NCBI GenBank assembly: GCA_963836145.1
Contig: CAWIIJ010000012.1
Span: 107,142 to 171,141, forward strand
Direction: 5' to 3'
Length of the DNA stretch: 64,000 bases
Source of the DNA: an uncultured Acidobacteriota bacterium
GTDB lineage: Bacteria > Acidobacteriota > Terriglobia > Acidiferrales > UBA7541
Each line of letters begins with the position of its first letter. Position 1 is the first letter of the stretch. This document shows, piece by piece, positions 3,156-40,214 of this stretch. A model generated the notes under the pieces. The model saw only the letters and a list, made by a program, of their open reading frames with translations. It was not told the DNA's origin and did no database searches. The position numbers were made by a program, and so were the translations under genes.

Positions 3156-3293
3156 CCCCCGATCTTCGGTTTCGAACGGCTTCCCTGAAGGGAATTGGAT
3201 GTTCCCATTTTGCACATTGGCCCCTAATACGCTGCATTGACCAGCGTTCAAGCGAATGTTAGGCTTGAACCAGTGGCTTGTATTTACTGAGGG

Positions 3294-4214: not shown

Positions 4215-4226
4215 TCCCACAAGCGC

Positions 4227-5537: not shown

Positions 5538-5755
5538 AATCGCTCCGGGCATATTGTCTTTTTCCCCGGCGGTCGCAAAGAGGAAAGAGCGCCTGCTCAC
5601 TTGACACCCATCCTGACAGTTGCCGTGATCGCTGCCCGCTAACCGCGCAGTTTGCGAATCGTGCACATCATGATTTCCACATCCCGGGCGCTTCTCCGGC
5701 GTGTTACTGTGACGGGCATTTCCCGGGTATTTGCCGGGACGCGAGGTGGCGCTGA

Positions 5756-8267: not shown

Positions 8268-8336
8268 CGCGCGATTGGCCGACGCCGGCCGTTTCGCAAC
8301 TACCTCGATTCGATAATCCGTTTTGGACCATGGAGC

Positions 8337-8396
8337 GCCCGCTTTCAGGCGGGCATCTGCTCGGTTACAAAGTGTCCGCCTGAAGGCGGACGCTAC
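8337..8396. repeat. two REP-like hairpins with CTGAAG/CTTTCAG centres
   Basis: GCCCGC-TTTCAG-GCGGGC at 8337-8354 and GTCCGC-CTGAAG-GCGGAC at 8374-8391, followed by GCTAC. Confidence 0.8.
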
Positions 8397-8492
8397 AAAA
8401 GGTGCCAAATATGAGTTCTCACATGGACTCTTTCGGCCCTGGCGTTCCAAGGCTGCGCGCCGAACCAGCATCTATGAGATGGCTATGGCTTC

Positions 8493-9440: not shown

Positions 9441-9447
9441 TGCCGAA

Positions 9448-10332: not shown

Positions 10333-10476
10333 GGGCCTTTGTTCTTTAAGGGGTCTTTTTTGGTCCCGTTGCGAATATAGGCGGGCGGCGGAGGAGTGTC
10401 AATCTCACGAGAAAGGGGCCGAGGCTCGGGTTTTGACGCGCTCTTCACTTTCGCGCAACAGTCCGCGAAGTCACCA

Positions 10477-10506
10477 TTGCACGGATTGACAAGAGCTGAC
10501 TATAAT
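10477..10506 (+). promoter_or_regulatory. sigma70-type promoter TTGCAC-N18-TATAAT
   Basis: -35 at 10477-10482 and a perfect -10 at 10501-10506, about 70 nt upstream of the GGDEF gene. An 8-bp hairpin CCTTCCGT/ACGGAAGG follows in the leader. Confidence 0.55.
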
Positions 10507-10575
10507 TTCTAGTGCCTCAATACCTTCCGTGGAACGGAAGGTGACCCGCAATCGAATCTGGCACTAAGGCTTGCA

Positions 10576-11673
10576 GTGACCACCACTGAAAATTTCTCTG
10601 GCATCGAGCGGCGCCGCAGCCCTTCAGCTCGGGGAGAACAACGCGAGGCGGGCGAGATTGCGGTGTTCCACGAACTGGGCAAGGCGCTCACTTCCTCCCT
10701 GCAACTCGATCAAGTCCTGCGCACCATCATGGAAAAGATCGACGAATTTCTGCGTCCGGATACCTGGTCGCTGCTTCTGGTGGATGATGTAAAGCAGGAA
10801 TTGTATTTCGAACTGGCCGTCGGCAAAGGCGCGCAGGCCCTGAAAGATGTGCGCATCAAAATGGGGCAGGGAATCGCCGGCTGGGTGGCGCAGCATGACG
10901 AAGCGGTGATCGTGCCGGACGTCAGCAAGGACACGCGATTTTTCTCCAAGGTCGACGAAAAGACGCAGATGGAAACGCGCTCGATCGTGGCCGTTCCGGT
11001 ACGCTACCGCGACCATTGCCTGGGCGTCATCGAGCTGATCAATTGCGTGGAGCGCGAAGGCTTCATGGAACGCGATCTGGCGCTGCTCGAAGCATTGGCC
11101 GACTTTGCCGCGATCGCGCTTGAAAATGCGCGGCATGTGAAACGAATCCATGAACTCACCATCACCGACGATTGCACCAGCCTGTACAACGCGCGGCACA
11201 TGGATTTTATTCTGGAAACGGAAATTTACCGCTCGCAGCGTTATGGCTACGAATTTTCAGTGGTTTTCATCGACCTCGATCATTTCAAGAGCGTCAATGA
11301 TACCCACGGGCACCTCGTCGGATCGAAGCTCCTCGCCGAAGTCGGGCAAATCGTGAAGAGCGCCTGCCGACGGATTGATTTCGCCTTCCGGTACGGGGGA
11401 GATGAATTTGTGATCGTTCTGCCGCAGGCCACCAAGGAAAACGCCTTTGTGGTCGCGCGCCGCCTGCACAAATTGATCGGGGAAACGCGCTGGCTGAGCA
11501 GCGAGGGGCTGGATGTGCATTTCACGGCCAGCATCGGAGTGGCGTCGTATCCCTCCGACGCGAAGACCAAGGTGGAATTGCTACACCTGGCCGACGAGGC
11601 CATGTATGCGATCAAGAACACCACACGCAACGGCGTGGCCGCGGCAAAAGTCGGCGCGTTGCCCACAAAATAA
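10576..11673 (+). CDS. GAF domain-containing diguanylate cyclase
   Basis: The C-terminal GGDEF domain has an intact RYGGDEF site, with RRID (RxxD I-site) five residues upstream. GTG start. Confidence 0.88.
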   Translation: MTTTENFSGIERRRSPSARGEQREAGEIAVFHELGKALTSSLQLDQVLRTIMEKIDEFLRPDTWSLLLVDDVKQELYFELAVGKGAQALKDVRIKMGQGIAGWVAQHDEAVIVPDVSKDTRFFSKVDEKTQMETRSIVAVPVRYRDHCLGVIELINCVEREGFMERDLALLEALADFAAIALENARHVKRIHELTITDDCTSLYNARHMDFILETEIYRSQRYGYEFSVVFIDLDHFKSVNDTHGHLVGSKLLAEVGQIVKSACRRIDFAFRYGGDEFVIVLPQATKENAFVVARRLHKLIGETRWLSSEGLDVHFTASIGVASYPSDAKTKVELLHLADEAMYAIKNTTRNGVAAAKVGALPTK

Positions 11674-11830
11674 ATCGGTTTTTGGACTCGATTTCCACAG
11701 CAGTATACATTCCCGCCTCCCGCATCTTCTTGATTCACTTCCTATGCCATGCTAGTCTCAGCGCTTCCGGTGACACGCCGCAGTGTGAATGGAGTGGATG
11801 TCCCGGTCGAGCATCCGAGACGAGGAGCGC

Positions 11831-12127
11831 ATGTCCAACGAAGCATTGGGGATGATTGAGACCAAGGGCCTGGTCGCTTCGATCGAAGCGGCCGACGCCA
11901 TGGTGAAGGCCGCCAACGTCATCCTCGTCGGCAAGGAATACATCGGCTCGGGATATGTCACCGTGATGGTGCGCGGAGACGTCGGCGCGGTGAAAGCCGC
12001 GACTGACGCGGGCGCGGCCGCAGCGCGCCGCGTGGGCGAGCTTGTTTCCGTGCATGTAATTCCGCGCCCGCACGAGCACGTGGAAAAGATTTTGCCCGGA
12101 GGCGGAGCGGCAGGAACGAAGAAGTAA
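11831..12127 (+). CDS. bacterial microcompartment shell protein, BMC-H (PduA/EutM/CcmK-like)
   Basis: [30 protein letters not shown]...[17 protein letters not shown] is the canonical BMC-domain sequence. Start trimmed to ATG 11831, behind GAGGAG. Confidence 0.9.
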
Positions 12128-12254
12128 ACCGCGAGGACGCGCGGTGCATCGAGCGGCCGCTAAGTTTCTGCAGCTCGCGTCAACGGTCTTCAGGCCTGCG
12201 GTTCCGGAGCCGGCGAACGAAGGCAGCGATGTTGGTAGGAGAAGGTAAAGCGTT

Positions 12255-14327
12255 TTGAGCCTGCGCGATCGCGACCTCATCTCCATTCAAGAAGCCCGCG
12301 AACTGGCGGCCCGGGCGGCTGCCGCACAGAAAAAATTCGCAGCATTTTCCCAGGAACAAGTTGACGCCGTCGTGGAGGCTTGCGCGAGAGCAGCCGCTGA
12401 AAATGCGGAGCCGCTGGCGCGCACGGCCGTGGAAGAAACCGGCTTCGGCAACGTCCCCGACAAGATCGTAAAGAACACGCTCGCCGCGGTGAACGTGCCG
12501 CGCGCGATTCGCGGCCTGTGCACCGTCGGAATTCTGCGCGAGGATCGCGACAAGGGAATCGTCGAGGTCGCCTCGCCGATCGGCGTTGTGGCGGCAGTGA
12601 TTCCTTCGACGAACCCAACCTCGACGGCCATCTACAAAACGATCATCTCCATCAAAGCGCAGAACGCGATTGTGCTGAGCCCGCATCCTTCGGCCATCAA
12701 GTGCATTTGCCAGGCGGCCACGCTGCTCGATCGCGCGGCACTTCAGGCGGGCGCGCCGGACGGCCTGATCCAGTGCATGTTGCACACCACGCTCGAAGGC
12801 ACGCGTGAGCTGATGCGCCGGCCCGAAGTCGGCGTCATCCTTGCCACCGGCGGCACGGGACTCGTGCGCGCGGCGTACGGGTCGGGCAAGCCGGCCTACG
12901 GCGTCGGTCCGGGGAACGTTCCGGCGTTCATCGAACGCACGGCCGACGTGCGCAAGGCCGTCGCGGACATCATCGCCGGGAAAACTTTCGACTATGGGAC
13001 GATCTGCTCATCCGAGCAGGCAGCGGTCGCCGAGGAATCGGTGCGCGAGCGCGCGCTCGAGGAATTCCGCCGGCAGGGCGCGTATTTTCTTTCTCCGGAT
13101 GAAATGGAAAGGGTCGCGCGCCTCGTTTTCCTGCCGGGATCGCACACGCCGAACACGAAAATTGTTGGCCGCGCGGCGACCGTGATTGCCGAGCTGGCCG
13201 GAATCAAAGTGCCGCCGGCGACGCGCGTGCTGATCGCGCGTCTCGAACCGGAACAAGTTGGCCGCGAGTTCCCGCTCTCGGCTGAAAAACTGTCACCGGT
13301 CCTGGCCTTCTATGCGGTGCCGAATCTCCCGGCGGGAATCGCTCTTTGCCGCCGGCTGCTGGAATTCGGAGGCCTGGGTCACACCTGCGCGATCCATTCG
13401 CAGAATCGCTCCGCAATTCTGCAATTCGGCGAAGCCATGCCGGCGTTTCGCGTAGTTGTGAACAGCGCGTCGGTGCACGGCTCGATCGGCTATTCGACCA
13501 ACCTCTTTCCCGCGATGACTCTCGGCTGCGGCGCACCCGGCGGCAACATCACTTCGGACAACATCGGCCCGCAACACTTGATGAACGTGAAGCGCATCGC
13601 CTGGGAATCGCGCGGCGTCGAGCACCACACCGTTCCCGCGGCGGAACGCATGGCGGGCGCGGCGATTGCGGCTGCGCCTGAAGCAGTCCAGGAAAGGGAG
13701 AGCGTGTCCCCGCCGCCGGCTGCGAAGCCCAATCCTGTTGAGAATCCGGCGGCGGCGCTGCCTGGGCCGAGGCTGGAGGAAAAGAAATCCGCCGCAAGCG
13801 CGGGGGCGCCCGCTTCCGCAGCCACCACCGGTGGAGTGGACCGCGCCGCTGTCGCGCGCGTGGTCGAGAATGTTCTCAAAGCGCAAGGGATCGTTCGTGG
13901 CAGCGGCGTTCCAAGGCCCATAAATCCGTCTCCGCCAGCACCGGAGCGCTCGACGAAAGAATTGCCCAGCCCGTCTTTGATCGCCGCTGAAGTTGCGGAC
14001 CGGCTTTTTGGTTTGGCGGCGCAATTGGGGACGAATGTTTCCATCGCTCCGCCCCAGGGCGGCGCTTCAGCATTGAGCGAGGGCCAGCCTAAAGGCTCGC
14101 GCGAAAACAACCAAGTCTCAAGCGGCGACTCCGGGAAAAAGCCCGAGGCCGCCGCAAAAATACCCGTCGAAATTCAAGGCTTTGTCAGCGAAAACGATGT
14201 GCGGCGCGCGATGACGCGCAGCGAAAAAATCTTCATCGGGCGCAAGACCATCCTCACGCCTTCCGCGCGCGATCTGGGTTTGGAGCACGAAGTGTTTGTG
14301 GAAACCGAATCCGGCTCAATCCGCTAG
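12255..14327 (+). CDS. CoA-acylating aldehyde dehydrogenase (EutE/PduP type) with ~230-aa C-terminal extension
   Basis: [26 protein letters not shown] and the catalytic [11 protein letters not shown] (Cys251). aa ~460-690 form a Pro/Ala-rich tail. TTG start behind AGGAGAAGG. Confidence 0.88.
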
Positions 14328-14342
14328 CTTTGGCAGGTCGTC

Positions 14343-14406
14343 TTCAGCCTGTCATGTTTAGACTTTCCGGTGGGCATGAATCAAAACCAACTAGGCTGAA
14401 CAGGCC
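14343..14406. repeat. R1-long element (CAGCCTGTnnnGTTTAGA ... AAAACCAnnTAGGCTGAACAGGCC)
   Basis: Long imperfect hairpin. Relatives at 15559-15628, 49491-49562, 57121-57192, 57402-57465 and 61370-61452. Confidence 0.8.
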
Positions 14407-14427
14407 GCGGAAAAAGTACTCGATATG

Positions 14428-14510
14428 GTCATTTCGAGCGGAGCGAGGAATTTGTCCTAGGCTTAACTATCGGAAAGAAAAGAAAGATTCGTCGCTCCGC
14501 TGGGAATAAC
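14428..14510. repeat. R2 inverted-repeat element (GTCATTTCGAGCGGAGCGAGGAAT ... GATTCGTCGCTCCGCTGGGAATAAC)
   Basis: ~24-nt arms around a GAAAAGAAAGA-containing spacer. Relatives at 25683-25765 and 57224-57307. Confidence 0.85.
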
Positions 14511-14551
14511 AAACGGTGGCGCGAGTTTTTCTTCAGCCGCTGAAGCGTGTC

Positions 14552-15439
14552 CTACTTTAAGTACTTATCGAAAAATGCCATGGTGCGATCCCACGCCAGC
14601 GTGGCCGCCTCCTTGTCGTACCGTGGCGTTGTGTCGTTGTGGAAGCCATGATTGGCTCCAGCATAGATGTACGCGGTGTAGGTGATGTGATTGGCCTTCA
14701 GCGCGGCTTCGAATGCCGGCCAGCCCGCGTTCACGCGTGTATCCAGCCCGCCGTAGTGAATCAGGAGCGGCGCCTTGATCTTGGCGACGTCCTCCGGGCT
14801 AGGCTGCATTCCGTAAAACGGGACCGCGGCCGCAAGATCGGGCATGCGCACCGCGAGCGCATTGGCCACGCCTCCACCGTAGCAGAAGCCGACCACTCCG
14901 ATCTTTCCCGTGCAGGCCGGGTTCGATTTCAAGAACATCGCGGCGGCGTACCAATCTTCCATCATTTTCTTGGGATCGAGCTTGGACTGCATATCGCGGC
15001 CCTTGTCGTCATCGCCGGGATATCCGCCGAGCGGAGTCAGTTCGTCGGGCGCTAGCGCGAGATAGCCCGCCACGCCCAGGCGGCGGGCGACATCCTCGAT
15101 GTAGGGATTCAGGCCGCGGTTTTCGTGGACCACGAGCACGCCCGGCAATTTCCCCTTGGCTTCCGCCGGCCGCGCGAGATAGGCGCGAATCGTGCCTTAT
15201 CCTTCTGGCGATTGGAACGTGATGTATTCGGTCTTCAGGCGCTTGTCATCTTTGGGGACTTGCTCGGCGAAGGCGTATTTCGGCGCGAGAGCTTCGTAGA
15301 TCGCGGAGGCGGTCAGGCCGCCCACGGCGAATTTCGCGGCGCCGTCCATGAACTCGCGGCGGCTGATTCCGCCGTGAACGTATTGATCGAAAAGATTGAG
15401 CAATTCCTGATCGAAGTCCGACGCTTTTTTTCGTTCCAT
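14552..15439 (-). pseudogene. dienelactone hydrolase family gene with Tat signal, interrupted by one in-frame TAA
   Basis: Track ORFs 15197..15499 and 14552..15148 are in the same frame. Read-through gives ...[35 protein letters not shown]..., with the TAA at 15197-15199. The N-terminus carries ISRREFMDGAAKFAVGG. ATG at 15439 behind GGGAGG. Confidence 0.8.
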
Positions 15440-28771: not shown

Positions 28772-30450
28772 CCGCCGCGCCCAGCCTGAGCCGGCAGTTA
28801 TCGCTGGTGATGATGGTGCGCTGGCAGACATTCCGCAACGGCCTGCGCAGCCGATCCGAGAAGGCGCACCTCGCGGGATCTCTCGCGCTGGGCTTCTTTC
28901 TGGTGCTGCTGACGCTGGCGGCCTCGGTGGGAGTAGGTTTCGCCGCCTATGCCGTGGCGCTGACTCGAAACTGGCTGGCGCTGACTTTGATGTTGTGGGG
29001 GATTTTCGTCTTCTGGCAACTGGTCCCGGTGCTGGCCTCCGAAATGAATCCAGGCTTTGACGGACGCAACCTGTTGCGGTTCCCGTTGCGATTTTCCGCA
29101 TTTTTCCTGATGAGCGCGGCCTACGGCGTTGCCGATCCGTTTGCACTCACCGGCATCGCCTGGCACGTGGCCATCGGCATCGGGGTCGCGATGGCCCGCC
29201 CGGATCTTGCCTTGTGGGCGGCGCTGGCGCTGATTATTTCGATCAAAATGAATCTGCTGCTCAATCGCCTGGTGTTCGCGTGGCTGGAACGCGCGCTGGC
29301 CAAGCGCCGGATGCGCGAACTCGTTACGGCAATGTTCGTGTTGTTGTTTGTGTGCATACAGTTTTCGGGCATCGCCGTGCGCCGCTGGGGGCCGCAGTTG
29401 CGGCGCGGCGTGGAAAATTATGCGACCCTGTGGCGTTCGCTTCCCCCGGGATTGCCGGCAACCGTGCTGCAACACGCCGCCGCCGGCGAGTCTGCCGCGG
29501 CCCTGCGCGCCGCCGGCCTGCTGGTGATCTACGCGCTGGTGTTCGGCGGGCTTTTCGCGCTTCGAGTGCGCGCTCAGTTTACGGGTGAAGATTTAGGAGA
29601 AAGCGCCGCGCCTTCGCCGCCCAAGCCCGCCGCGAGATCCCTTTCCGAGTCCGCTGCGCGTTCGGGCGCGGTAACCCTACAGGGATCGCGGCCGCTTTCG
29701 AACGTCGTAAGCTCTCCGGTCGCCGCTATATTCGTAAAGGAGTTCCGCTATTTCTACCGCAACACGATGTTGATGATGAACGTGTTCATGCCGCTTATTT
29801 TGATCGCATTTTTCAGTCTGTCTTCGTCCATGCCGCGGCGCCACGGCGAGCCGTCATATCTGGGAAGATTCAGCGGGGACTTTGCCTATCCTGGCGCGGT
29901 CGTCTACATCCTGCTGCTGATGATGAATTTTTGCCCTAACAACCTGGCCTACGAGGGCCGCGGCATGGAGCGATTGTTTCTCGCTCCGGTGAAATTCCGC
30001 GACGTGATGCTGGGGAAGAATCTGTTTCACGGGGCGATTCTGGTGATGGAAGCGCTCATCGCGCTGGTTCTGGTAACCGAATTGGGGCATCCGCCACGCC
30101 CGGTCATCATTCTGGCGACCTGGGCGGCGCTTCTGTTTGCCGCTCTGGTGCACTTGGCGGCAGGCAACTGGCTTTCCCTTCAGTACCCGCGCAGATTCGA
30201 ATTCGGTGTGAGGCGACAGCGCCCTTCGGGGCTGACGATGATCATTACTTTTGGACTGTTTTTGGGGGAACTGGCGGTGATTTCCATCGCGGCAGCGCTC
30301 TGCATCTGGCTCGCGCGCCTGTGGCTCCTGCCGCTTGTCTATCTCGTTATGAGCGCGGCCGAGCTCGTTATCTACCTGCTGGCGCTCGAGGGAACCACGC
30401 GCCAGGCGATTCGGCAGCGCGATACTCTGCTGGATCAGATTTCACGCTAG
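28759..30450 (+). CDS. ABC exporter permease-like polytopic membrane protein
   Basis: 563 aa with many hydrophobic helices. Its start overlaps the ATPase stop by 13 nt. Confidence 0.75.
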   Translation: MAEVAAAPSLSRQLSLVMMVRWQTFRNGLRSRSEKAHLAGSLALGFFLVLLTLAASVGVGFAAYAVALTRNWLALTLMLWGIFVFWQLVPVLASEMNPGFDGRNLLRFPLRFSAFFLMSAAYGVADPFALTGIAWHVAIGIGVAMARPDLALWAALALIISIKMNLLLNRLVFAWLERALAKRRMRELVTAMFVLLFVCIQFSGIAVRRWGPQLRRGVENYATLWRSLPPGLPATVLQHAAAGESAAALRAAGLLVIYALVFGGLFALRVRAQFTGEDLGESAAPSPPKPAARSLSESAARSGAVTLQGSRPLSNVVSSPVAAIFVKEFRYFYRNTMLMMNVFMPLILIAFFSLSSSMPRRHGEPSYLGRFSGDFAYPGAVVYILLLMMNFCPNNLAYEGRGMERLFLAPVKFRDVMLGKNLFHGAILVMEALIALVLVTELGHPPRPVIILATWAALLFAALVHLAAGNWLSLQYPRRFEFGVRRQRPSGLTMIITFGLFLGELAVISIAAALCIWLARLWLLPLVYLVMSAAELVIYLLALEGTTRQAIRQRDTLLDQISR

Positions 30451-30556
30451 GCGCGCCCGAATCTTCAGCTTTTTTTCCCGGATATCCCTGCGTTCGGGTT
30501 TTCGGCTTCGGCGCCAAGTCCAGTCCGCGGCATTTCCGTGCTGGTAACCGCCGGCC

Positions 30557-30580
30557 CTACACAGCCTGAGGCTGTGCTGC
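30557..30580. repeat. REP-like palindrome R1 variant (CTACACAGCCTGAGGCTGTGCTGC)
   Basis: Hairpin ACAGCC-TGA-GGCTGT. Confidence 0.7.
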
Positions 30581-30609
30581 TGCCGCCTCAACCAGAGAAC
30601 TTCACGCTG

Positions 30610-30623
30610 CACCGAAGGTTGTT
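30610..30623. repeat. 14-bp direct repeat, left copy (CACCGAAGGTTGTT)
   Basis: An identical 14-mer at 37797-37810 abuts the other inverted repeat. Confidence 0.9.
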
Positions 30624-30661
30624 GGGGTAGTGTACAGCGACGGCAAAATGCTCCCTCCCCC
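30624..30661 (+). repeat. 38-bp terminal inverted repeat, left (GGGGTAGTGTACAGCGACGGCAAAATGCTCCCTCCCCC)
   Basis: Perfect reverse complement of 37759-37796. Imperfect similarity continues ~90 nt inward, including a shared GGCGAGCGGCGAT. Confidence 0.92.
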
Positions 30662-30806
30662 CTTTCTGAGCGTTTATGGCCATGGCGAGCGGCGATTGCG
30701 TTGTTGCGGGTGCGCGGAATCGGGAGCGGGCGGTCCAGCAATGCAATGTAGAAGCGCGCGCTAGATAAACGTGTGGCGCGGCGGTGTGGGGGATGGCAGA
30801 GGGAAT

Positions 30807-31532
30807 CTACTGTTTCAAAAGAAATGCCAGGAAATTGGAGTGAAATTTCTCAGCCAATTCATCAGCAGATCGCGTGTGAAAAGTTACATTCTCCCGAAGA
30901 GATGTTCTCGGGTCGAGAATGTTGAGACGGACCGCAAAAGTGATAGCTTCATGGCCCCCTGCAGGGGGAACGTTCCACCACGTAACCGTTTGCTTCCCGT
31001 CTTCATCGCCGAGTGCTATGTGGGCGTTGGCTCTGGCAAGTAATTCCTTCGGAACGAAGCGATTATAGATCGCAAACACGGGTTGCAGTTCAGCCACGTC
31101 TTCGAGTTCCTTGTATTTTTCAATTGGGATACCCGATGCCACTTGGCTGGCAATTGCAAGCGCGAACTCAATCGGTATGACTTTTAAGAAGGCGGTTAGT
31201 TGCCCTAAGAGTTCCTCGCGCCATACTTGCCACGAGTTGAAACTCACGCCCCAACCGGCCCAAAGCAGGATTTCATTGCGGGAGATTTTACATTGAAAGT
31301 ATGGGTTCGCTTCAGTCCCATCCCCTTTTACGAGACTAACTTGATTCGCGGGTTGTGCTTGAACAATTTCAGAGAACAGCTTCTCCCTTACGAGGAGATA
31401 CTCAGCCAGCGAGGCCATTAGGCTAGCGCCGAGGCATTCGAACTTGAAACTTATCGCACACTGGTACGTGTTTTTTCCGAAGTCAACAATAGCCAAAACA
31501 ATCTTCTCCGTACGAGCTAGGCTACGGCGCAC
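30807..31532 (-). CDS. hypothetical protein (241 aa), island cargo
   Basis: The long ORF overlaps the end of the reconstructed upstream gene by 11 nt. GTG start is uncertain. No family recognised. Confidence 0.55.
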   Translation of the reverse strand: MRRSLARTEKIVLAIVDFGKNTYQCAISFKFECLGASLMASLAEYLLVREKLFSEIVQAQPANQVSLVKGDGTEANPYFQCKISRNEILLWAGWGVSFNSWQVWREELLGQLTAFLKVIPIEFALAIASQVASGIPIEKYKELEDVAELQPVFAIYNRFVPKELLARANAHIALGDEDGKQTVTWWNVPPAGGHEAITFAVRLNILDPRTSLRENVTFHTRSADELAEKFHSNFLAFLLKQ

Positions 31533-31701
31533 CTTGCATCGCTAGTTTTTCCGCCGTTTTCGATTCTTGTCTTGTTTCGACACCTAACCCTTGCAAAGCT
31601 GCTGCTCTTATCTGGCGCGCCTCCAATGACATGAAGCGGCTTTCTTCCAAATGCTTTTGCCACTCGGTCAGATACCTGCCATAAGTTAACTGAAGTATTT
31701 G

Positions 31702-33135
31702 GAAATTGTCCCCGGTTTAGTTGAAAGTGGCGGCTCTCGACTTCGGGCACCTTATGCGACCTGCTCCTGCTGAGTCAATAACGGATTCAGTTTGCGCTGC
31801 AGGAGTTCCAGTTCCCGGAAGCCTTTCACCTTTCGGAATTTCTTTTCCGCTTCAAGTAATCCGGTGGCCGTCCAGCGCAGCGCGTGGTCCCCGGCTCGCC
31901 AGCGTTTCACATTCCGGGCCACGCGCTCGACCGTGGAAAGGCACGACTCGATGGGATTGCTCGAAGCCAACGTCTGCCGTAGCAGCCCTCCCACGCCCAG
32001 CCGGTGCACGGTGAGAGTTTCGTCCAACCCTTCTTCCAGGCTGTGTGCTGCGCTCGGATTGATGCGCTCCAGTTGCCGGAAGATTTTTTCAAGTTCCGCT
32101 TTGGCCTCCGCGTAGCCGGTCATCGCGTAGGCGTTGCGGATTCTTCGATCCGTATCTCCCTGGGCGCTCTTGGGCAAATGCTCTTTCACGTTCCGCCGCT
32201 TGTGGATCTGGCAGCGCTGCACTTCGGCCCGTTTGCCGAACACCCGCTCGATCCCCGCGCGCAGTGCCTTGGCCCCGTCGATCACGAACAAGTAGCGTCT
32301 CTCTGGGTTTAGGCCCCGTGCTACCAGGTCTTCCAGCAGTTCTTTGACCACGGTGGTGTTCTCCGTCGCGCCCTGCCAGAGTCCCAACACCTGCTTTTTC
32401 CCGCTCGTTTCGATGCCCAGCGCCACGACCAACACCTGCTTGCCCAGATGAATCCCGTCGATCAAGATCGCCACCAGATCCAGTTCCTCCAGTCTTTTCT
32501 CGTAGAGCTTTTTCAGTTGTGCCGCGCTGGCCGCCACGAACTGGCGGCTCACACTGGACTTCTCGATCCCGTAGCCCTCCAGCACGCTGTCCACCGCACG
32601 GTGATAGTTCCGCGAGGTCAGCCCGGCCACGATCCCTTCCCGCACCGCCCGCTGCCGTCGACCGTCGTGTTGCAGCCGCGCGTAACTGTCCAGCTGCACT
32701 TCTTCCCCTTGACGCGTGCGCACCCGCGGACGCTGCACCGCTACTTTCTGCCCAGCAAACACCACGTAGCCCGATTGCTGACCCCATCGCAAGCAACTCG
32801 ACGCCGCATCCGGTTGGTGGCGCGGCCCTACGCGTCGCATCACTTCATCTTCGATCACGGCACGAATGATCTTCAACCCCGCCAGCCCGGTCAGGTGTTC
32901 GACCTCTGGCTGCAACTCCTCCCACACCTCCACCAGCGGCAGCGGTAACCGCACCGCCACTTCTTTGCTTCCCAGCACCTCGAACTTCTTCGTGGACTTC
33001 TTCCCACTGCTCTGGTATCTGTCGGCCATAGCGGCTCTCCTCTCTAAAAAGAGTTCTCATCCCGGACTCTATCCGAGTCCGGGCCGAGAGCCGCTACTTC
33101 CTTCTTCAGGTTTCAACTAAAGGCGGGACAACTTC
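31702..33135 (-). mobile_element. IS256-family insertion sequence (1434 bp)
   Basis: Ends GAAATTGTCCCCGGTTTAGTTGAAAG and GAAGTTGTCCCGCCTTTAGTTGAAAC (reverse complement), flanked by the 8-bp TSD AGTATTTG at 31694-31701 and 33136-33143. Confidence 0.9.
31752..33029 (-). CDS. IS256 family (Mutator-type) transposase
   Basis: 425-aa ORF with the typical IS256 length and sequence character (...LIDGIHLGKQVLVVALGI..., ...VQRCQIHKRRNV...). Confidence 0.9.
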   Translation of the reverse strand: MADRYQSSGKKSTKKFEVLGSKEVAVRLPLPLVEVWEELQPEVEHLTGLAGLKIIRAVIEDEVMRRVGPRHQPDAASSCLRWGQQSGYVVFAGQKVAVQRPRVRTRQGEEVQLDSYARLQHDGRRQRAVREGIVAGLTSRNYHRAVDSVLEGYGIEKSSVSRQFVAASAAQLKKLYEKRLEELDLVAILIDGIHLGKQVLVVALGIETSGKKQVLGLWQGATENTTVVKELLEDLVARGLNPERRYLFVIDGAKALRAGIERVFGKRAEVQRCQIHKRRNVKEHLPKSAQGDTDRRIRNAYAMTGYAEAKAELEKIFRQLERINPSAAHSLEEGLDETLTVHRLGVGGLLRQTLASSNPIESCLSTVERVARNVKRWRAGDHALRWTATGLLEAEKKFRKVKGFRELELLQRKLNPLLTQQEQVA

Positions 33136-33718
33136 AGTATTTGAGGAATCAAGATTCTGGCGTAAGCATTCTGTGGTAACTCTTCTAAACTTTTCTCTAG
33201 TTGGAGCGTAAGTAAACGAGTCTTACCTATGCCTGATGAGCCGAGAATAAAAACATTGGGACGCATACCTTGATATCTAAGACGCCCCCAATCCTGCTGC
33301 AGCAACCCGCTCGGTATCACGTGTTGCGCCGAAGATATTCCGAGCACCTGTGACCAAGCTTCTTCCTCGTCAGGCTGGACCGTCGATGAAATATCGCCCG
33401 GCAAATCAACGACGAAACTTTCCGGCAGTTTTTCCATTTGGTGATCGAGGTCGGCGGGGGATAAAACACACATTTTGTCTTCGGCAGGTGGTGCAACTGG
33501 GTGCAAGACTCCCCTGACTGCATCTAGGATCGGTCGCACCAACGCAAGCACTCCCCAAAAAACGAGCGTGAGCGCAAGTCCTACTCCGACCCCAGTCACA
33601 ATAAGAACAAGAAGTTCAACCATTTTTCAAATCCTCTAACCTACCCCCGTGTGTACCCATAATATATGATGACCGAAATGATCGCTATCGACGCGACTCC
33701 GAAGACGCAACTCCAACT

Positions 33719-34243
33719 TTGCGAAAACCGACGAGCCAAAGGTATCCTGCTACTCGATTGACTCAAAGTCGCCGACGCCAAGCTAAGGGTAGCTCGTTTG
33801 ATCCAGGAGCCGAAAATACACTTCGTCCGCTGCGTATCTGTCGAATTTGCGGCGCGACCATTAAGCGGGGTCAGACCTACTGTGCATCGTGCGCTGTCGG
33901 AGTTTCGAGGGAAAGGTTGATCGAGGCCGCAAAACTCGGGCGCATTGCTACGCTCACTCTTGAAGCAGAGACCCTCCGCGCTAAGACCCAACGAAAGCAC
34001 GCTGCCGCCATAGCTGCATGGCAGCCCTCCGAGTTGCCGGAATGGCTTACTGAGGAAGCTTACCGCAAGAAGATTCAACCCGCGCTTGCTGAAATAACTG
34101 TTCCCGCTATCGCAACTGCTCTCGGCATCTCGGAGCCCTACGCTACAGATATTCGTGCGGGCCGACGCATCCCACATCCAAGGCATTGGCTAGCGCTTAC
34201 AAGGCTTGTTGGTGTTTCGGCCAATTCTTCCCAATCTGAGTAA
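33719..34243 (+). CDS. hypothetical zinc-ribbon + HTH-like protein (174 aa), island cargo
   Basis: CRICGATIKRGQTYCASCA (CxxC..CxxC) and a C-terminal IATALGISEPYATDIRAGRRIPHPRHW. TTG start is uncertain. Confidence 0.55.
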   Translation: MRKPTSQRYPATRLTQSRRRQAKGSSFDPGAENTLRPLRICRICGATIKRGQTYCASCAVGVSRERLIEAAKLGRIATLTLEAETLRAKTQRKHAAAIAAWQPSELPEWLTEEAYRKKIQPALAEITVPAIATALGISEPYATDIRAGRRIPHPRHWLALTRLVGVSANSSQSE

Positions 34244-34427
34244 AGTGTTAGTTTCAACTTGGGATCGGGGCAGGACTTATATCGCTCCTGTTATGTATTA
34301 TCGTGATAACGTATATCCAGGTACTATAAGAGATCAATGACTGGACCTTCCAACTCGGTAACTGTCCCCCGGTGCGGTCAGAATAAACGTGTGGTAATGT
34401 TGGCATAATCGGAAAGAAGGTGAAGGC

Positions 34428-35960
34428 GTGTCAACATCCGTCCAAGAGCTTCGCACGATTGTTCAAGAGAGTCTGCGTGTGCAGCGCGATAGTCCTGATC
34501 CGGTTGATTACATTGATGCAGCAAATGCGGTAAGTGATGCCGTCGCTCGACAGAACCATGTAATCTTCGGCAGGCGTGGATGCGGCAAGACTCTATTGAT
34601 GCATTTTTCCGCGAGAAAAGTCCGCGCTGATGTTCGGGTCGTCTACGTTAATTGTGAGGATTATAAGCAGCATTCCTTCCCTGACGTACTGATTGAGATT
34701 CTTGATCAATTATTTCGAGAGCTTGAACAGAACCTGCCTGGCTGGTTTGGAAAGAAAAGGCAATCGAGAGAGCTGATTCAGGAAATTCGAAATGAGCTTG
34801 CGAAATTGAAGCGGAACCCCGACGAACTTAAGTCTAAAGTCCGAGAATCTGTGTCGTCGGAGGGTAGTGTCAATGCGTCGGTGGCAGTTTTGGCAAGCGG
34901 TATCGGGATAGGGGCCGCTGCGCAGAGTGCTCAAAAAAGCGCAGTCGAAAAGGTCTATGAGCAAAACGATAGCAAAATTCATGAACTAGATCTATTGCTC
35001 CCGAGATTGAAGGAAAGGATTCGGCAATTCTTTTCGATTTCCGATGATGTCAAAAGCGTTTTTTTAGCGCTGGACGACTTCTACCATCTTCCGCGAGCTA
35101 TCCAACCTTACGTGGCTGATTACATTCACAGATTATGCAAAGATGTCCCGATATACTTCAAGATTGCGACATTGAGGCACGCGAGCATGCTCTATGCGGA
35201 TCGCAACAAGCAGCCGATAGGAGTTCAGGAACATCACGATTATCAGCCTATAAATATCGACTTCACGCTTGCCGACTTTAGCCGCACGTCTTCCCAATTG
35301 AGAAAGATTTTGTACGCATACGGGGAGAAAGCAGGAATGTCGCGCGATGAAATTGATGATTTGTTTATGGGTGAAGGATTTGAAAGATTGGTGCTCGCGG
35401 CTGGTGGTGTTCCAAGGGATTTCTTATCCCTGCTTTTGGAAGCCCTCTCTCCTAAGCCAATCGGCGACGAGAGAATTGGAAAGGACGATGTCCGGCAATT
35501 GAGTTTGGGTGTTTTTCAGAGACGAATCGCGGAATTAAAAGTCGATTCTGAAGAACAGGATCAAGATACCCTGCTCAAGGGGATTCATGCGATTACGACG
35601 TTTTGTTTGGAAAAGAAGGAAAATGTTTTCTTGGTGCCTGACCAAGCACTCCAAGAACAAAACGGGCTAAGAGAGCTGCTCAATAGGTTGTTGGACTACC
35701 GAATTATTCATTCCGTGGGGATTGCGCTCACCCACAAGAGCAACCCGGGCACCTTCACTGCCTACATGCTCGATATTGGCGCGTATGCTAAATATAGGAA
35801 ACTCGAAGGTCGCTTCAAAGAAATTGATGTTACAGCCCCTGATGCCCGAGAACGGTGCCGGAATTCGCCTGTGCTTGACCGTGACACATTATTGCAGCTC
35901 CTCGGCGTGGCTCCTGCGAATCCCGAGGTGGACCTTCCAGACGAAGATCACGCATCCTAA
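34428..35960 (+). CDS. ORC/Cdc6-like AAA+ ATPase (510 aa), island cargo
   Basis: Walker A GRRGCGKT (aa 48-55), Walker B VFLALDDF (aa 211-218) and sensor-2-like GGVPRDF (aa 326-332). The C-terminal part is wHTH-like. GTG start behind GAAGGTGAAGG. Confidence 0.8.
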   Translation: MSTSVQELRTIVQESLRVQRDSPDPVDYIDAANAVSDAVARQNHVIFGRRGCGKTLLMHFSARKVRADVRVVYVNCEDYKQHSFPDVLIEILDQLFRELEQNLPGWFGKKRQSRELIQEIRNELAKLKRNPDELKSKVRESVSSEGSVNASVAVLASGIGIGAAAQSAQKSAVEKVYEQNDSKIHELDLLLPRLKERIRQFFSISDDVKSVFLALDDFYHLPRAIQPYVADYIHRLCKDVPIYFKIATLRHASMLYADRNKQPIGVQEHHDYQPINIDFTLADFSRTSSQLRKILYAYGEKAGMSRDEIDDLFMGEGFERLVLAAGGVPRDFLSLLLEALSPKPIGDERIGKDDVRQLSLGVFQRRIAELKVDSEEQDQDTLLKGIHAITTFCLEKKENVFLVPDQALQEQNGLRELLNRLLDYRIIHSVGIALTHKSNPGTFTAYMLDIGAYAKYRKLEGRFKEIDVTAPDARERCRNSPVLDRDTLLQLLGVAPANPEVDLPDEDHAS

Positions 35961-37516
35961 TGCGAACAACGACCTGTATCTTTGTCATCATCGCTTCGCT
36001 AGCGGCCATTCCACTAGCGGCTCAAAACGCACCACCTCACCGACTATCGCGAGCGGTAGTTGATCCCGTGGAACTTAGCGGTCCGCCGAAAAAGCTTGTT
36101 CTTTTAACGCCAACGAAGCGAGCGTTCGCCCAAAGTGCGGTACTGGAAAAACTAAATTCGAAGGACCCATCAGTCCTAGCGTCCGCATTGAGCGACATTA
36201 CATCCTTCATTCAGCAAGACCCGACTGATACGGACCTTTTTAATCTCAGGGCAACCATCTCCTGTGAAATCGCGGGCAGCAATAAAGAGGTAATGCTTAA
36301 CGACATTAAGACGTCCATCAAACTTTGGAAGCCAAATGAGGACAGCGCGTTCTATTCTTTAAAGAACCACTACGCACTGAAAGCGAAAATCGACTTTCTG
36401 TTGGGGCGGTATGCAGATGCTCTAAATGATCTCGACGCGGGTATGCGGATCGACTACGCGGACGCCACTGAAATGTTCAATAATGGCAACGTTAAACCAG
36501 ATGAGCCGACAGCTATGCCGTGCATGTGGTCACAGGCTGATGTAAACAAATTGGCAGAATTGTTTCCGAGGGATTACCGAACGTCGCTTTACGTTGGCCT
36601 ATACGGGCTTGAATTTTCCAAGTGGTCTTTGGACACTGACTATCAACCCATCCTGAAAGCATTTGAACGCGCGGCTGAACTTAATCCGTCTTCGGCCCTA
36701 CCATCATATTTCACTGCGAGACCGTACGTTGCTGGCGGCATAGGGGGTTTGATGTCAGAAGCGAATGCCACATGTCTCGGCGACGTGGTACCACGCACGA
36801 AGGCGTGCCTCGAATTGGATGAAATCCACCGCACTGGCGTTCGAATTCTCACAAAGGCAATCGCCGCTGAACGGACATTTGAGCCTGCTTATGCTCTTCG
36901 TGCCGAGGCTTACCTTCAATTGCGTGAGAATCGGCAAGCAATTCGGGACTACACGGAAGCATTGGAACTCGCCCCGAACGCTAACCTGTATGGAGACCGT
37001 GGTTTGGCAGAGTCAGAGTTAAAGGAATATCAAGCGGCTATTCTCGATTACACCAAGAGGATTGCTGAGGGCTGCGAAGAGCCGTGTTCAGCCTATGAAA
37101 ATCGCGCAAACGTTTATTTGAAACTCCGCGATTATCCACATGCAATCAATGACCTCGGCCATGCCATTAGGAACTTTCTGGCGGGCACGATCTATGGATT
37201 CAATATCGAGCAATTCCGCATAATCTATCCCGAATATGACGCCGTAGCTGATGACGTATTGTGCGAGAAGCTTCGAGTGCTGTTTAACCCGCAAATGAGC
37301 TACGCGGATTATTCCAAACAGTTCTTGGTTAACGCGAAGGAATTTGATGATTTTGTCTTGCCAGAACTGTTTCTGAAACGGGGTGATGCATACGCCGATA
37401 TGGGAGACATCGCCAGCGCAAATCGAGAATATGATCGTGTGGCTGCGGGATTCCCGAAGTGGGCTGAAAACGCATTCGTGACGCGCAACGGAAAACGCGT
37501 TCGCGTCCGCCAGTAA
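35960..37516 (+). CDS. secreted TPR-repeat protein (518 aa), island cargo
   Basis: ATG overlaps the ATPase stop (TAATG). Signal peptide MRTTTCIFVIIASLAAIPLAA/QN. TPR-like repeats include AYALRAEAYLQLRENRQAIRDYTEALEL. Confidence 0.8.
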   Translation: MRTTTCIFVIIASLAAIPLAAQNAPPHRLSRAVVDPVELSGPPKKLVLLTPTKRAFAQSAVLEKLNSKDPSVLASALSDITSFIQQDPTDTDLFNLRATISCEIAGSNKEVMLNDIKTSIKLWKPNEDSAFYSLKNHYALKAKIDFLLGRYADALNDLDAGMRIDYADATEMFNNGNVKPDEPTAMPCMWSQADVNKLAELFPRDYRTSLYVGLYGLEFSKWSLDTDYQPILKAFERAAELNPSSALPSYFTARPYVAGGIGGLMSEANATCLGDVVPRTKACLELDEIHRTGVRILTKAIAAERTFEPAYALRAEAYLQLRENRQAIRDYTEALELAPNANLYGDRGLAESELKEYQAAILDYTKRIAEGCEEPCSAYENRANVYLKLRDYPHAINDLGHAIRNFLAGTIYGFNIEQFRIIYPEYDAVADDVLCEKLRVLFNPQMSYADYSKQFLVNAKEFDDFVLPELFLKRGDAYADMGDIASANREYDRVAAGFPKWAENAFVTRNGKRVRVRQ

Positions 37517-37758
37517 AAGGTTGTGGGGAATATTGCTTTCCCGGTGCGGGCCGAAGCGGCAAATACGGCAATTATCAAGAAATTGATGCCCGGCGATCTC
37601 GTTTTCGGCCACATGAAGGGACTCAGATACGTCGGGTTCGGACCCGTCAGCAACCGCCGCGCGCGCGCTTCTTTACCGCGCCCCGCACCGCCCGCCTTCC
37701 GCTCTGTCCACACTCAATGGCCCATCGCCGCTCGCCTGGGCAAACATGGCAGAAATAT

Positions 37759-37796
37759 GGGGGAGGGAGCATTTTGCCGTCGCTGTACACTACCCC
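37759..37796 (-). repeat. 38-bp terminal inverted repeat, right
   Basis: Perfect reverse complement of 30624-30661. Confidence 0.92.
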
Positions 37797-37810
37797 CACC
37801 GAAGGTTGTT
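37797..37810. repeat. 14-bp direct repeat, right copy (CACCGAAGGTTGTT)
   Basis: Identical to 30610-30623. Confidence 0.9.
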
Positions 37811-37834
37811 CGCTGCCAACGCCTCCCCTATACT
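37806..37834 (+). promoter_or_regulatory. possible promoter TTGTTC-N17-TATACT for the lptC-like operon
   Basis: The -35 overlaps the right direct repeat. The -10 at 37829-37834 lies 32 nt before ATG 37866. Weak match. Confidence 0.3.
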
Positions 37835-37865
37835 CGGCGTCTAAGTCTTCGAGGCGCTTGAACGG

Positions 37866-40214
37866 ATGCGAAATAGCGAAGCGCAGAGATATGCGCGGTG
37901 GTCGCTCGCAGCGGCCGGACTTCTGGCCGCGGTAGTGGCCGGCGTGTACCTGCGAAACATCTGGCTGGCGCGCCAGGCGGAAAAGAAGGCCCCGCCAGCG
38001 GTGCCTGCCAGCGTCGAGCAGCGTTCGAACGAGTTTTCCTACTCGAAAGTCGATGGGCAGCGCACGATTTATACGGTGAAGGCCTCGCGCACCACGGAAT
38101 TCAAGGAAGGGAGCAGGGATCTTCTCGAAGACGTGACCATCCTGGTGTACGGGAAAACCGGAACGCGCAACGATACCTTGCGCACACGCGCCTGCGATTT
38201 CATCTCCAATACCGGGAAAATAAGTTGCGAGGGAGAAGTCCAAATCAGCCTGCAGGCTGCCGGCGCGCCGCAAGCAATCGCCAATGCGATCCAGGTGGCG
38301 ACCTCCGCCTTGACGTTTGACAGGAATTCCGGCCAGGCGCGCACCGACCAGCCGGTTACGTTCCACTGGCCCGCGGGAGAAGGCAGCGCCGTGGGCGTGA
38401 GCTACGATTCGAACAGCGGAACGCTCCAGCTGCTGCGGAACGTCCAACTGAATCTTTCGCCTCCTTCTGCCGTGATCCCCGCCAAAATCAACGACACCGA
38501 CGAGAAGACGGTTCGCGTTTCAGGCGACAGCATGTCATTCCAGCGCGACGCCCGAGTCGTGGTGATTGACGGAAAAGTCCACTCGCAGCAGGCATCGCAC
38601 GAGCTTTACGCGGATCAGTTGCTGCTGGAGTTGGATTCGCAATTTCAAGCCCGGCGTTTTGTGGCCAGCGGACATCCGCAATTGCGCGACCTGAATCCGC
38701 AAGGGCCCGTCACCCTGAGCGCCGACGAAATTGCCGCGGAGCTCAGGCCCGACGGTTCCGTCGCTTCGGTCCAGGCGAAGGGAAATGTGCACGGGACGCG
38801 CGTCACGCCCGTCGGCGGCGACGCCATCGACGCCGGGCGCGTGCAGGTGAACCTCGCGACGGCCGACAACTTGCCGCGCCTGCTGACGGCGAGCGATGGC
38901 GTCATGCTTACCTCGACCAGCGCATCATTCAATGGGGGCACGCGCCACGTCGAAAGCGACGCGCTGGACGTCAACTTTTCAAACGATCCCGCCACGGGCC
39001 AGACGTTGGTGGAGAGCGTAAATACGCTCGCGCCAGCCAGCGTCGATTGGCAGAACGTCGCGTTGGTGAACGGCAAGCCGGTGCCTCAATCGACGCGCAT
39101 GTCGGGCAAGCAGATGAATCTGAAATTCGACGGCCAGAACCAGTTGCAGGAGCTGGTGAACACCGGCAGCGTGGAAGTAACACGCAAGCTGGGCGACGCG
39201 CCGGAGGAGACCACTACTTCGCGCGAACTTACCGCCGTGTTCGACAAAACGGGCCAATGGTCGACCATCGATCAAACAGGCGAAGTGCATTTCCACGACG
39301 GCCAGCGCGCGGGGCAGGGAAACCGGGCCCACCTGGATCGTGCGAGCGACGCGCTCACGCTCGACGGCTCGGTGGTCTTTTCCGACTCCACCACGCGAAC
39401 CACGGCGCAATCCGTATCCTTCGTTCAACCGATGAGCGCCTTGCGCGCGGATGGGCATGTGCTCACGACGGATCTGCGCCCCACGACGTCCGGCATCTCA
39501 AATCTCGCGCCGGAGCCGGCGCACATTTCGGCGGAACGCCTGGTGGCGGATACGGCGCGAGGTCACGCGGTGTACTCGGGTAAAGCGAGAATGTGGCAGG
39601 GACAATCGGTGATCCAGGGTGACTCCATCGAACTGGACAGCGCGACACACACGTTGCAGGCCAAGGGCCACGTAGACGGCGTTTTTCCACAGGCAGCCTG
39701 GAGCCCGAAGCCACGGGACGCCTCCGAGGTAACTTCGAGCAAGCCAACAAAGCAGTTATCGAAGTCCAGCGGAATTTCCAGCCCTTCGGATGCTCGCGCC
39801 TCCACGCAGTTGGGCCACGTTTACGGAGGATTACTTACGTATTGGGAGGCGGAATCGCGCGGCCGGATCGAACACGATGCCAGAGTGGATTCCGAGCGCG
39901 GCTCGATCCAAGCCGACCGGATCGATCTCTATTTCTCTGACGCGGGCTCAGGAGGCGCCAAACAATTGTCGCGGTCAGTGGCCAGCGGAGATGTGACCGT
40001 GCAGCAGCAGGATCGCCGCGGAACTTCAAATCGGGCCGAGTATACGGCCTCGGAAGGCAAGTTTGTTCTTTCGGAAGGGAAACCAACTTTATATAGCTCA
40101 ACTGGGGACACCACCACGGGGCGTCAATTGACCTTCTATTTTGCTGATGATAGGATTCTTGTGGATTCGGCGGATGGTTCGAAGACCGTGACGCTTCACG
40201 AGGTCGGGAAATGA
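37866..40214 (+). CDS. LptC-like anchor fused to multiple LptA/OstA-like repeats (782 aa)
   Basis: N-terminal TM segment WSLAAAGLLAAVVAGVYL, then an LptC-like segment, then repeated OstA-type patterns (e.g. AERLVADTARGHAVYSGKARMWQG.., ADRIDLYFSD..). Sits directly upstream of lptB. Confidence 0.75.
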   Translation: MRNSEAQRYARWSLAAAGLLAAVVAGVYLRNIWLARQAEKKAPPAVPASVEQRSNEFSYSKVDGQRTIYTVKASRTTEFKEGSRDLLEDVTILVYGKTGTRNDTLRTRACDFISNTGKISCEGEVQISLQAAGAPQAIANAIQVATSALTFDRNSGQARTDQPVTFHWPAGEGSAVGVSYDSNSGTLQLLRNVQLNLSPPSAVIPAKINDTDEKTVRVSGDSMSFQRDARVVVIDGKVHSQQASHELYADQLLLELDSQFQARRFVASGHPQLRDLNPQGPVTLSADEIAAELRPDGSVASVQAKGNVHGTRVTPVGGDAIDAGRVQVNLATADNLPRLLTASDGVMLTSTSASFNGGTRHVESDALDVNFSNDPATGQTLVESVNTLAPASVDWQNVALVNGKPVPQSTRMSGKQMNLKFDGQNQLQELVNTGSVEVTRKLGDAPEETTTSRELTAVFDKTGQWSTIDQTGEVHFHDGQRAGQGNRAHLDRASDALTLDGSVVFSDSTTRTTAQSVSFVQPMSALRADGHVLTTDLRPTTSGISNLAPEPAHISAERLVADTARGHAVYSGKARMWQGQSVIQGDSIELDSATHTLQAKGHVDGVFPQAAWSPKPRDASEVTSSKPTKQLSKSSGISSPSDARASTQLGHVYGGLLTYWEAESRGRIEHDARVDSERGSIQADRIDLYFSDAGSGGAKQLSRSVASGDVTVQQQDRRGTSNRAEYTASEGKFVLSEGKPTLYSSTGDTTTGRQLTFYFADDRILVDSADGSKTVTLHEVGK

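Follow-up and report, generated by a model that had tools for sequence, protein, structure and literature searches.

A probable casposon derivative without casposase or polymerase in an Acidobacteriota genome, and the promoter-like insertion sites of its relatives

Casposons are self-synthesising transposons whose integrase, the casposase, belongs to the Cas1 family. The enzyme attaches the terminal inverted repeats (TIRs) by their 3′ ends to two phosphates of the target, with a stagger of 14-15 bp, and gap repair then leaves a duplication on either side of the element. It has been proposed that the CRISPR adaptation machinery arose from casposons, which are known from few genomes, most of them archaeal. 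DNA transposons of other kinds are known to give rise to non-autonomous forms by internal deletion, as in the case of Ds from Ac in maize and of the miniature inverted-repeat transposable elements (MITEs) that derive from bacterial insertion sequence (IS) elements. Here we describe a 7.2-kb element at positions 30624-37796 of a 64,000-nucleotide stretch of DNA from an uncultured Acidobacteriota bacterium of the class Terriglobia (contig CAWIIJ010000012.1 of assembly GCA_963836145.1; the whole stretch is denoted the window), which is very probably a non-autonomous derivative of a casposon.

Among the described groups, the thaumarchaeal family 1 is characterised by a protein-primed family-B DNA polymerase (PolB), a Cas1 that has no helix-turn-helix (HTH) domain and integration into the aEF-2 gene. 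The casposon definition comprises Cas1, PolB, TIRs and a 14-bp duplication (PMC4046053), and as of 2023 the reference set held 54 Cas1 sequences in four families (PMC9966878). In experiments, casposases make duplications of 14-15 bp, and the enzyme of M. mazei uses a target in which a short motif marks one end of the duplication, together with ~30 bp on that side (PMC6977970). Family 3, known from a few members of the Proteobacteria, Streptomyces and Ca. Acetothermum, combines a PolB of the RNA-primed type with an HNH endonuclease (PMC4046053, PMC4779613), and tandem casposons with one common duplication as well as solo TIRs have been described in Methanosarcina (PMC4779613). Our search of the full-text literature, with subscription-only literature outside its scope, returned nothing on casposons in Acidobacteria, on naturally occurring non-autonomous casposons or on promoters as casposon targets. 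The superfamily is known; new are a cargo element that derives from a casposon and has neither casposase nor polymerase, and a large group in Terriglobia that, as judged from its flanks, integrates at -35 boxes.

Ends, duplication and casposase remnant of the element

A first-pass annotation, made from the letters of the window alone, had described the segment as an AT-rich insertion between perfect TIRs and a flanking direct repeat of 14 bp, with an unrelated IS256 element nested inside, and this description is borne out in every part. Two copies of the TIR, GGGGTAGTGTACAGCGACGGCAAAATGCTCCCTCCCCC, and no more, are present in the window, at 30624-30661 on the plus strand and at 37759-37796 on the minus strand, with 0 mismatches over 38 bp (0 matches expected in shuffled sequence). 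Inward of the tips the two arms are similar over 76 nt at 83% and share conserved blocks to ~150 nt (GGCGAGCGGCGA, GGCGGGCGGT and AGAAGCGCGCGC), the homologous arm extending to ~30770 on the left and inward to ~37650 on the right. The 14-mer CACCGAAGGTTGTT is likewise present in exactly two copies in the window (~0.01 expected), both on the plus strand and both exact matches, at 30610-30623 and 37797-37810; each abuts one TIR tip, and we regard the pair as a genuine target-site duplication. Its length is unlike that produced by bacterial DDE elements, as the annotation had pointed out. The element thus delimited measures 7,173 bp, or 5,731 bp minus the IS, and contains five open reading frames (ORFs). 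GC content is 47-53% in its interior, 57-65% in the flanks and 60-64% in the nested IS. An Rfam scan of 29500-38500 gave no match. At ~65 nt from each tip (30685-30696 and 37724-37735) the arms carry a conserved subterminal box, (A/G)GCGGCGA, which is common to the arms of a related casposon at locus L014 (loci are denoted by L numbers), as well as being found in L006 and L007; it may be a candidate second protein-binding site.

The arms, ~150 bp each, are as GC-rich as the host, as would be expected if a host palindrome or a repetitive extragenic palindromic (REP)-like sequence had captured foreign DNA. We consider this origin very unlikely. The arms are present in two copies only in 64 kb, a profile of TIR variants finds no more, and the duplication begins exactly at the tips. 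The 14-mer is no common REP, being found in the window only at the two flanks. Neither are the arms a conserved host feature: the same tips stand at unrelated loci with different flanks in many genomes, where they enclose varied cargo and cas1 together with polB.

The 38-bp repeat starts with GGGGT and contains GGCAAAA in its middle, and in this it resembles Tn3-family repeats such as those of Tn4651 and Tn1546. A derivative of the Tn3 family, either TIME-like or a mini-Tn3, is nevertheless exceedingly improbable. The flanking repeat is 14 bp and not 5 bp long, and the 5-bp sequences adjoining the tips are not the same (left, TTGTT; right, CACCG). The element contains no Tn3 transposase, and no Tn3 transposase or resolvase was recorded or detected in L014 and L015, the related elements that carry Cas1. 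A MITE was also considered and rejected, as the size of the element and its five ORFs contrast with the short (<~1 kb), non-coding form of MITEs.

Comparison of the casposon core proteins with the window by tblastn yielded a single match, the ORF at 33719-34243 on the plus strand. Its frame is open over 174 amino acids, which are 59% identical to residues 338-504 of the L014 Cas1 (E 2e-59); for the Cas1 of L074 the identity is 57%. None of the invariant CxxC...CxxC and HTH residues has been lost, and the product consists of the C-terminal zinc-ribbon and HTH domain only. On the basis of this homology we assign the ORF as the 3′ third of a casposase (cas1) gene. In the same search, nothing in the 64-kb window matched Cas1 residues 1-337, the two small conserved genes of casposons or polB, and a Pfam scan of the element found no transposase or integrase besides that of the nested IS256. 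The annotation had reported that a cognate transposase is missing, which is correct inasmuch as none is functional and the element is non-autonomous; a trace of one remains, in the form of the cas1 tail. The possibility that this tail is a selected stand-alone regulator was dropped; a second example, in L028, has stop codons.

The element has the TIR of cas1- and polB-bearing elements and a duplication of the ~14-15 bp typical of casposons. It differs from the casposon superfamily in having neither the catalytic domain of Cas1 nor PolB, two defining features, and it is therefore filed as a non-autonomous derivative and not as a full casposon. Of the two origins proposed by the annotation, a non-autonomous member of an undescribed family was right as to non-autonomy; the superfamily is a known one, characterised by a Cas1-family integrase and 14-15-bp duplications (PMC6977970). 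The other, cargo caught inside a MITE-like repeat, does not agree with an element that is an apparent internal-deletion derivative and keeps the C-terminal part of the casposase. As in Ds- and MITE-type derivatives, which move by transposase supplied in trans, the ends and the subterminal sequence are kept and the gene for the integrase is partly deleted. Unlike the transposases of those derivatives, Cas1 is not of the DDE class, and the large size of the element and its intact cargo genes also set it apart from a MITE.

Autonomous relatives with the same ends

To find relatives, the 22-nt tip of the TIR was searched in one genome per species and in a metagenome scan; the census demanded the exact 22-mer and so samples one TIR subfamily only. 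The tip was found in 12 places, all in genomes of Terriglobia/Acidobacteriaceae, and in 55 further metagenome stretches, with no occurrence in IMG/VR viral contigs. The cargo behind it is wholly different from place to place. The autonomous version for which the annotation had recommended a search exists: in the peat metagenome loci L048, L053 and L071, a TIR identical to that of the window over 38 nt bounds elements with cas1 and polB. More generally, the first 22-38 nt of the window TIR are identical to the ends of the cas1- and polB-bearing casposons in L014, L048, L053 and L071, and the tip is identical to that of L015 as well.

The same tip and duplications of 13-15 bp bound elements of 14-15 kb in Terriglobia genomes. 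Two contigs hold both ends of one element, with the separate 14-bp duplications CGCAACTCGTTGAC and CCTGAAACTTTGAC, and across ten pairs of ends the duplication is 13-15 bp long and different in sequence in each. The casposon in L014 spans 491-14795 (14.3 kb) between copies of CCTGAAACTTTGAC and encodes a 507-residue Cas1 (gene at 6746-8269) and a 977-residue polymerase. The complete element in L015 encodes a Cas1 of 509 residues, a polymerase of 972 residues and an Rhs toxin as cargo, and a further full casposase gene is located at 1496-3010 of L071. In both L014 and L015 the TIRs enclose, in this order, cargo, polB, two small genes, cas1 and further cargo. A cargo protein of 918 residues in L014 (2515-5271, minus strand) combines RNase_H_2 and IS66-type DDE domains (PF13482 and PF03050).

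The Cas1 proteins of these siblings match Pfam Cas_Cas1 (E 1e-39) and an HTH domain and score above the cut-off of TIGR00287. Their best match of solved structure is 6OPM, the casposase of M. mazei (E 1e-19), a distant similarity that covers the Cas1 core only. In the polymerase, present in L014, L015 and L053, the family-B motifs DxE, NxxFD, YxxxD, DxxSxYP, KxxxNSxYG, DTDS and KxY appear as invariant alignment columns. The sole family match is PF03175, of the organellar and viral, protein-primed type; it is weak, and lies below the cut-off for protein P0001. Searches of the PDB with the sequence and with a profile gave no match, and the structure prediction had a mean pLDDT of 37. The polymerase has >3,000 homologues at E <= 0.001, which points to a large bacterial reservoir of casposons; the best 120 listed are 73-100% identical, mostly ~960-1,000 residues long and in many cases carry PF03175.

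In their TIRs, 14-15-bp duplications, Cas1, family-B polymerase in the full elements and variable cargo, the siblings resemble the casposon superfamily as described (PMC4046053, PMC4779613); Terriglobia, and with them the Acidobacteriota, are not among the published hosts. With family 2, to which the M. mazei casposase belongs, they have in common the 14-bp duplication and a C-terminal HTH domain, which in M. mazei is essential for integration (6OPM, PMC6977970). They differ from it in an extra zinc ribbon before the HTH domain of the Terriglobia Cas1, in the fact that no HNH gene is on record, and in a polymerase that is not of the archaeal RNA-primed type by any match obtained. Bacterial hosts, intergenic insertion and, in some members, Cas1 fused to zinc-binding and HTH domains are likewise seen in family 3 (PMC4046053, PMC4779613), from which the group is apparently set apart, by the descriptions, through its polymerase (matched by PF03175 only), the lack of an HNH gene on record in L014 and L015, another host and another target. 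Nor does the group agree with family 1 as regards Cas1 and target: the sibling Cas1 has a zinc-ribbon and HTH tail, and the targets are promoter-like.

A second TIR subfamily, with the tip GGGTAAGGTTACAGAGCGGGGAAAAGTGATACACCCC, is represented by L074, an element at the promoter of a rhomboid gene. It encodes a PolB-like protein of 868 residues (2719-5325, minus strand), 33% identical to the L014 PolB, and a Cas1 of 516 residues (7694-9244, plus strand), and its right end lies at ~11585-11621. Residues 734-859 of the PolB-like protein are homologous to the zinc-ribbon/HTH region of Cas1 (residues 379-498; 28.6% identity over 133 residues, E 2e-7). Polymerase and integrase may, on this similarity, share a DNA-binding module, perhaps for end recognition.

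Insertion sites in relation to promoters

To compare insertion sites, flanks were read outward from the tip and duplicates were removed, which left 51 flanks. These fall into two mirror classes, indicating that the target has an orientation, and the 14-bp duplication consists of nine variable bases followed by TTGAC. A TAnnnT motif stands 17-18 nt after TTGACN in 22 of the 32 TTGAC-side flanks, as compared with 9% (91/1,012) of all TTGAC sites in the same loci (binomial P 3e-16); some of the 32 flanks represent the promoter of the same gene in different genomes, leaving ~9 clearly distinct promoter groups, and TTGAC with the -10 pattern is present in all of them. Most of the other ten TTGAC-side flanks have another casposon end tip-to-tip right after the duplication, as in a tandem insertion. 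In at least 13 loci, co-directional genes begin 10-300 nt downstream; they include valS, genes for Ser/Thr kinases, rnpA and a rhomboid gene. Taken at face value, the flanks indicate that the group inserts at the -35 box of promoters.

The promoter-like right flanks had also been considered as decayed TIRs. That interpretation was dropped: the look-alikes precede genes that are the same or are paralogues of one another (valS, Ser/Thr kinases), the duplications are not alike, and the co-directional gene starts named above speak against it.

At ~19 of the 51 tips another end lies tip-to-tip at a distance of 14 nt, indicating tandem insertions with one duplication in common. As TTGAC is part of the duplication, an intact promoter would stay beside the gene and could be targeted again, which would explain the tandem arrays. 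At the rhomboid promoter, the pair L074 and L014 represents the states before and after such an event, and an L074-type end is located tip-to-tip 13-14 nt from the L014 casposon.

The casposon superfamily likewise has preferred integration sites, tandem arrays with one duplication and solo TIRs (PMC4046053, PMC4779613). Its targets are the 3′ end of a tRNA gene, the aEF-2 gene or an unspecified intergenic site, whereas the present group is found at the -35 box. The sibling group and the M. mazei casposase are alike in having a short target motif at one end of the duplication; in family 2 this is CGCA next to a tRNA gene, and in the present group it is TTGAC at the promoter-proximal end.

In the window, a promoter-like site is located at 37806-37834 on the plus strand, with a -35 hexamer TTGTTC (37806-37811), a 17-nt spacer and a -10 hexamer TATACT (37829-37834). 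The 14-bp duplication stops after base 5 of the -35 hexamer, and the site lies 31 nt upstream of an lptC-like gene (37866) at the head of an lptC-lptB-rpoN-rapZ cluster. The stretch is conserved in the relatives L017 and L018 and has the geometry seen in the 22 sibling flanks.

The empty-site check that the annotation had proposed did not turn up an unoccupied copy of this exact locus. An exact-sequence look-up of the LptC-like protein gave no record. The predicted empty junction is TTCACGCTG-CACCGAAGGTTGTT-CGCTGCCAACG. Among the closest LptC relatives, which are 78% identical, one contig (L017) has its first base at precisely the insertion point, as would follow from an assembly interrupted by a repeat, and L018 carries a degenerate solo right TIR upstream of lptC (5908-5932), ending 13 nt before the base after the -35 TTGTC. 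These two findings show that the lptC site has served repeatedly or over a long period, and the solo TIR, with the tandem insertions of the siblings, adds further casposon hallmarks.

Several observations weigh against assigning the window element to casposons inserted at promoters. The -35 hexamer TTGTTC is weak, matching the consensus at three of six positions, and a consensus promoter scanner makes no call at the site. A clean empty site for the locus was not found among the LptC relatives. Neither the element nor the 64-kb window, the only part of the genome in view, contains a functional casposase, a polymerase or an autonomous partner. The parent casposon is unsampled, and the best full Cas1 is only 59% identical to the remnant. 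Against these points stand the homology of ends and remnant, the length of the duplication, and the tandem insertions and solo TIR among the relatives, and we regard derivation from a casposon as very probable.

The flanks provide a testable target rule, composed of nine variable bases, TTGAC, 17-18 nt and a -10 box. If it is true, natural Cas1-mediated insertions would accumulate repeat by repeat beside a promoter. Such a promoter points outward, away from the inserted elements, in contrast to a CRISPR leader, from which transcription enters the array. The group could serve as a bacterial system for the study of casposase target choice, including whether the zinc-ribbon/HTH domain reads the -35 box, and of how Cas1 integrases come to work beside promoters.

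Small relatives and derivation of the element

Six complete small elements of 1.6-4.1 kb have the same ends and neither cas1 nor polB: those in L038 (3.0 kb), L039 (4.0 kb), L042 (4.0 kb), L058 (4.1 kb), L064 (2.6 kb) and L010 (L010b, 1.6 kb). Their duplications are 13-15 bp long. Short contigs favour short elements, so that nothing can be read from the proportion of small and full elements. The flanks of the L058 element (1-30 and 4097-4125) are inverted copies of 14 nt and TIR-like sequence and not direct repeats; this is probably an assembly artefact, but could also reflect an element between two facing ends. The element in L039 (193-4167) carries two large serine recombinase genes with Resolvase and Recombinase domains.

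These recombinases, together with a direct repeat around a low-GC island beside a conserved operon, might suggest an integrative island that entered through site-specific recombination by a tyrosine or serine recombinase, with the 14-mer as the core of an att site. Such an origin is very improbable. The sequence of the flanking repeat differs from locus to locus, as expected of a target duplication and not of a conserved att core, and perfect TIRs are not characteristic of integration at att sites. Moreover, the window element has no integrase, and the recombinases of L039 are missing from the other elements.

For the casposon derivative, the following history is proposed. The ancestor would have been a full casposon of ~11 kb with the gene order described above for L014 and L015. 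We infer that a single internal deletion, with one breakpoint inside cas1 and the other at the distal end of polB, took out polB, the small genes and about two-thirds of cas1 from its start; such a deletion would give the layout of the window exactly, with both 38-bp TIRs left, cargo to either side, and the tail of cas1 that encodes the zinc ribbon and HTH. The element would have come to sit at the promoter-like site of lptC-lptB-rpoN, with an intact copy of the site remaining next to the genes, and the IS256 would have jumped into one of the cargo genes afterwards. To move again, the element would depend on the casposase of an autonomous member of its group, acting in trans. Mobilisation of this kind is plausible from the sequences at hand: the TIR is identical in elements whose casposases have diverged to 40-66% identity, and the casposases of the group differ from one another by 34-50%, yet a 22-25-nt tip is common to all, which makes cross-mobilisation plausible, as does the existence of the six small elements with the same ends.

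The deletion may have occurred before or after insertion at the present site. In the latter case an autonomous casposon would have been inserted here and would later have lost polB and most of cas1, so that the non-autonomous unit never moved. This course of events, which differs from the history proposed above only in the order of two events, is a serious possibility that we place somewhat below even. That the ancestor was autonomous is evident from the remnant of cas1; degenerate fragments of cas1 or polB lie behind TIR tips in L028 and L022 too, and inactivated casposon copies are known in Methanosarcina (PMC4779613). No second copy of the window element was found at another locus. L001, which is 99.97% identical and has no flanks, represents the same locus or organism, and the element is present in ERR11718638 at 99.97%. 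On the other hand, the TIRs (38/38) and the duplication (14/14) are still perfect in spite of a ~5-kb deletion and the IS insertion, and the existence of at least six small elements without cas1 and polB, flanked by 13-15-bp duplications, is easier to understand if derivatives were mobilised. The chances that the window copy moved after the loss of cas1 are roughly even.

Three propositions can be combined: that a very abundant, apparently undescribed casposon group inhabits Terriglobia of soil and peat; that it targets promoters of the sigma-70 type, cutting inside the -35 box so that the duplication regenerates the promoter and insertions pile up in tandem upstream of genes; and that cargo derivatives without casposase are mobilised in trans. 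That all three hold jointly is, in our estimate, an evenly balanced proposition. Deletion derivatives that keep only the ends would be the casposon counterpart of Ds elements or MITEs. For annotation, low-GC islands of Acidobacteria with GGGGTAGTGTACAGCGACGGCAAAA ends and 14-bp repeats can now be given a label.

The cargo of the window element comprises two minus-strand and two plus-strand genes. A minus-strand ORF of 241 amino acids at 30807-31532 belongs to no recognisable family; it has no Pfam or PADLOC match and no homologue among the other loci. The second minus-strand gene, at 31522-33623, is split by the IS256; excision of 31702-33143 restores a small P-loop protein of 219 residues with the Walker A motif GSSGIGKT and a weak match to AAA_16. 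The plus-strand genes encode an ORC/Cdc6-like (Sll1717-type) P-loop ATPase of 510 residues (34428-35960) and a TPR-repeat protein of 518 residues (35960-37516).

The nested IS256-family element occupies 31702-33135 on the minus strand. It shows the characteristics of its family, namely a Mutator-type transposase (Transposase_mut ORF 31752-33029; PF00872, E 2e-30), short inverted repeats (31702-31726 and 33111-33135) and, where the family makes 8-9-bp duplications, its own 8-bp duplication, AGTATTTG, at 31694-31701 and 33136-33143. Its ends are unrelated to the outer TIRs. Its GC content is host-like and not casposon-like, which suggests that it originated from the resident genome and arrived after the casposon.

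The PADLOC matches of the cargo ATPase were all below threshold, and no defence role is claimed for it. Its counterpart in L074, with 91-92% amino acid identity, lies directly 3′ of the full-length cas1 and just before the right end. A homologue with 89% amino acid identity in L076 (10001-11527) is encoded just downstream of rpoB-rpoC and beside a ParD antitoxin gene, with no such TIR nearby, so that the ATPase evidently travels outside casposons too; homologues are also present in Pandoraea, Chlorobaculum and Deltaproteobacteria.

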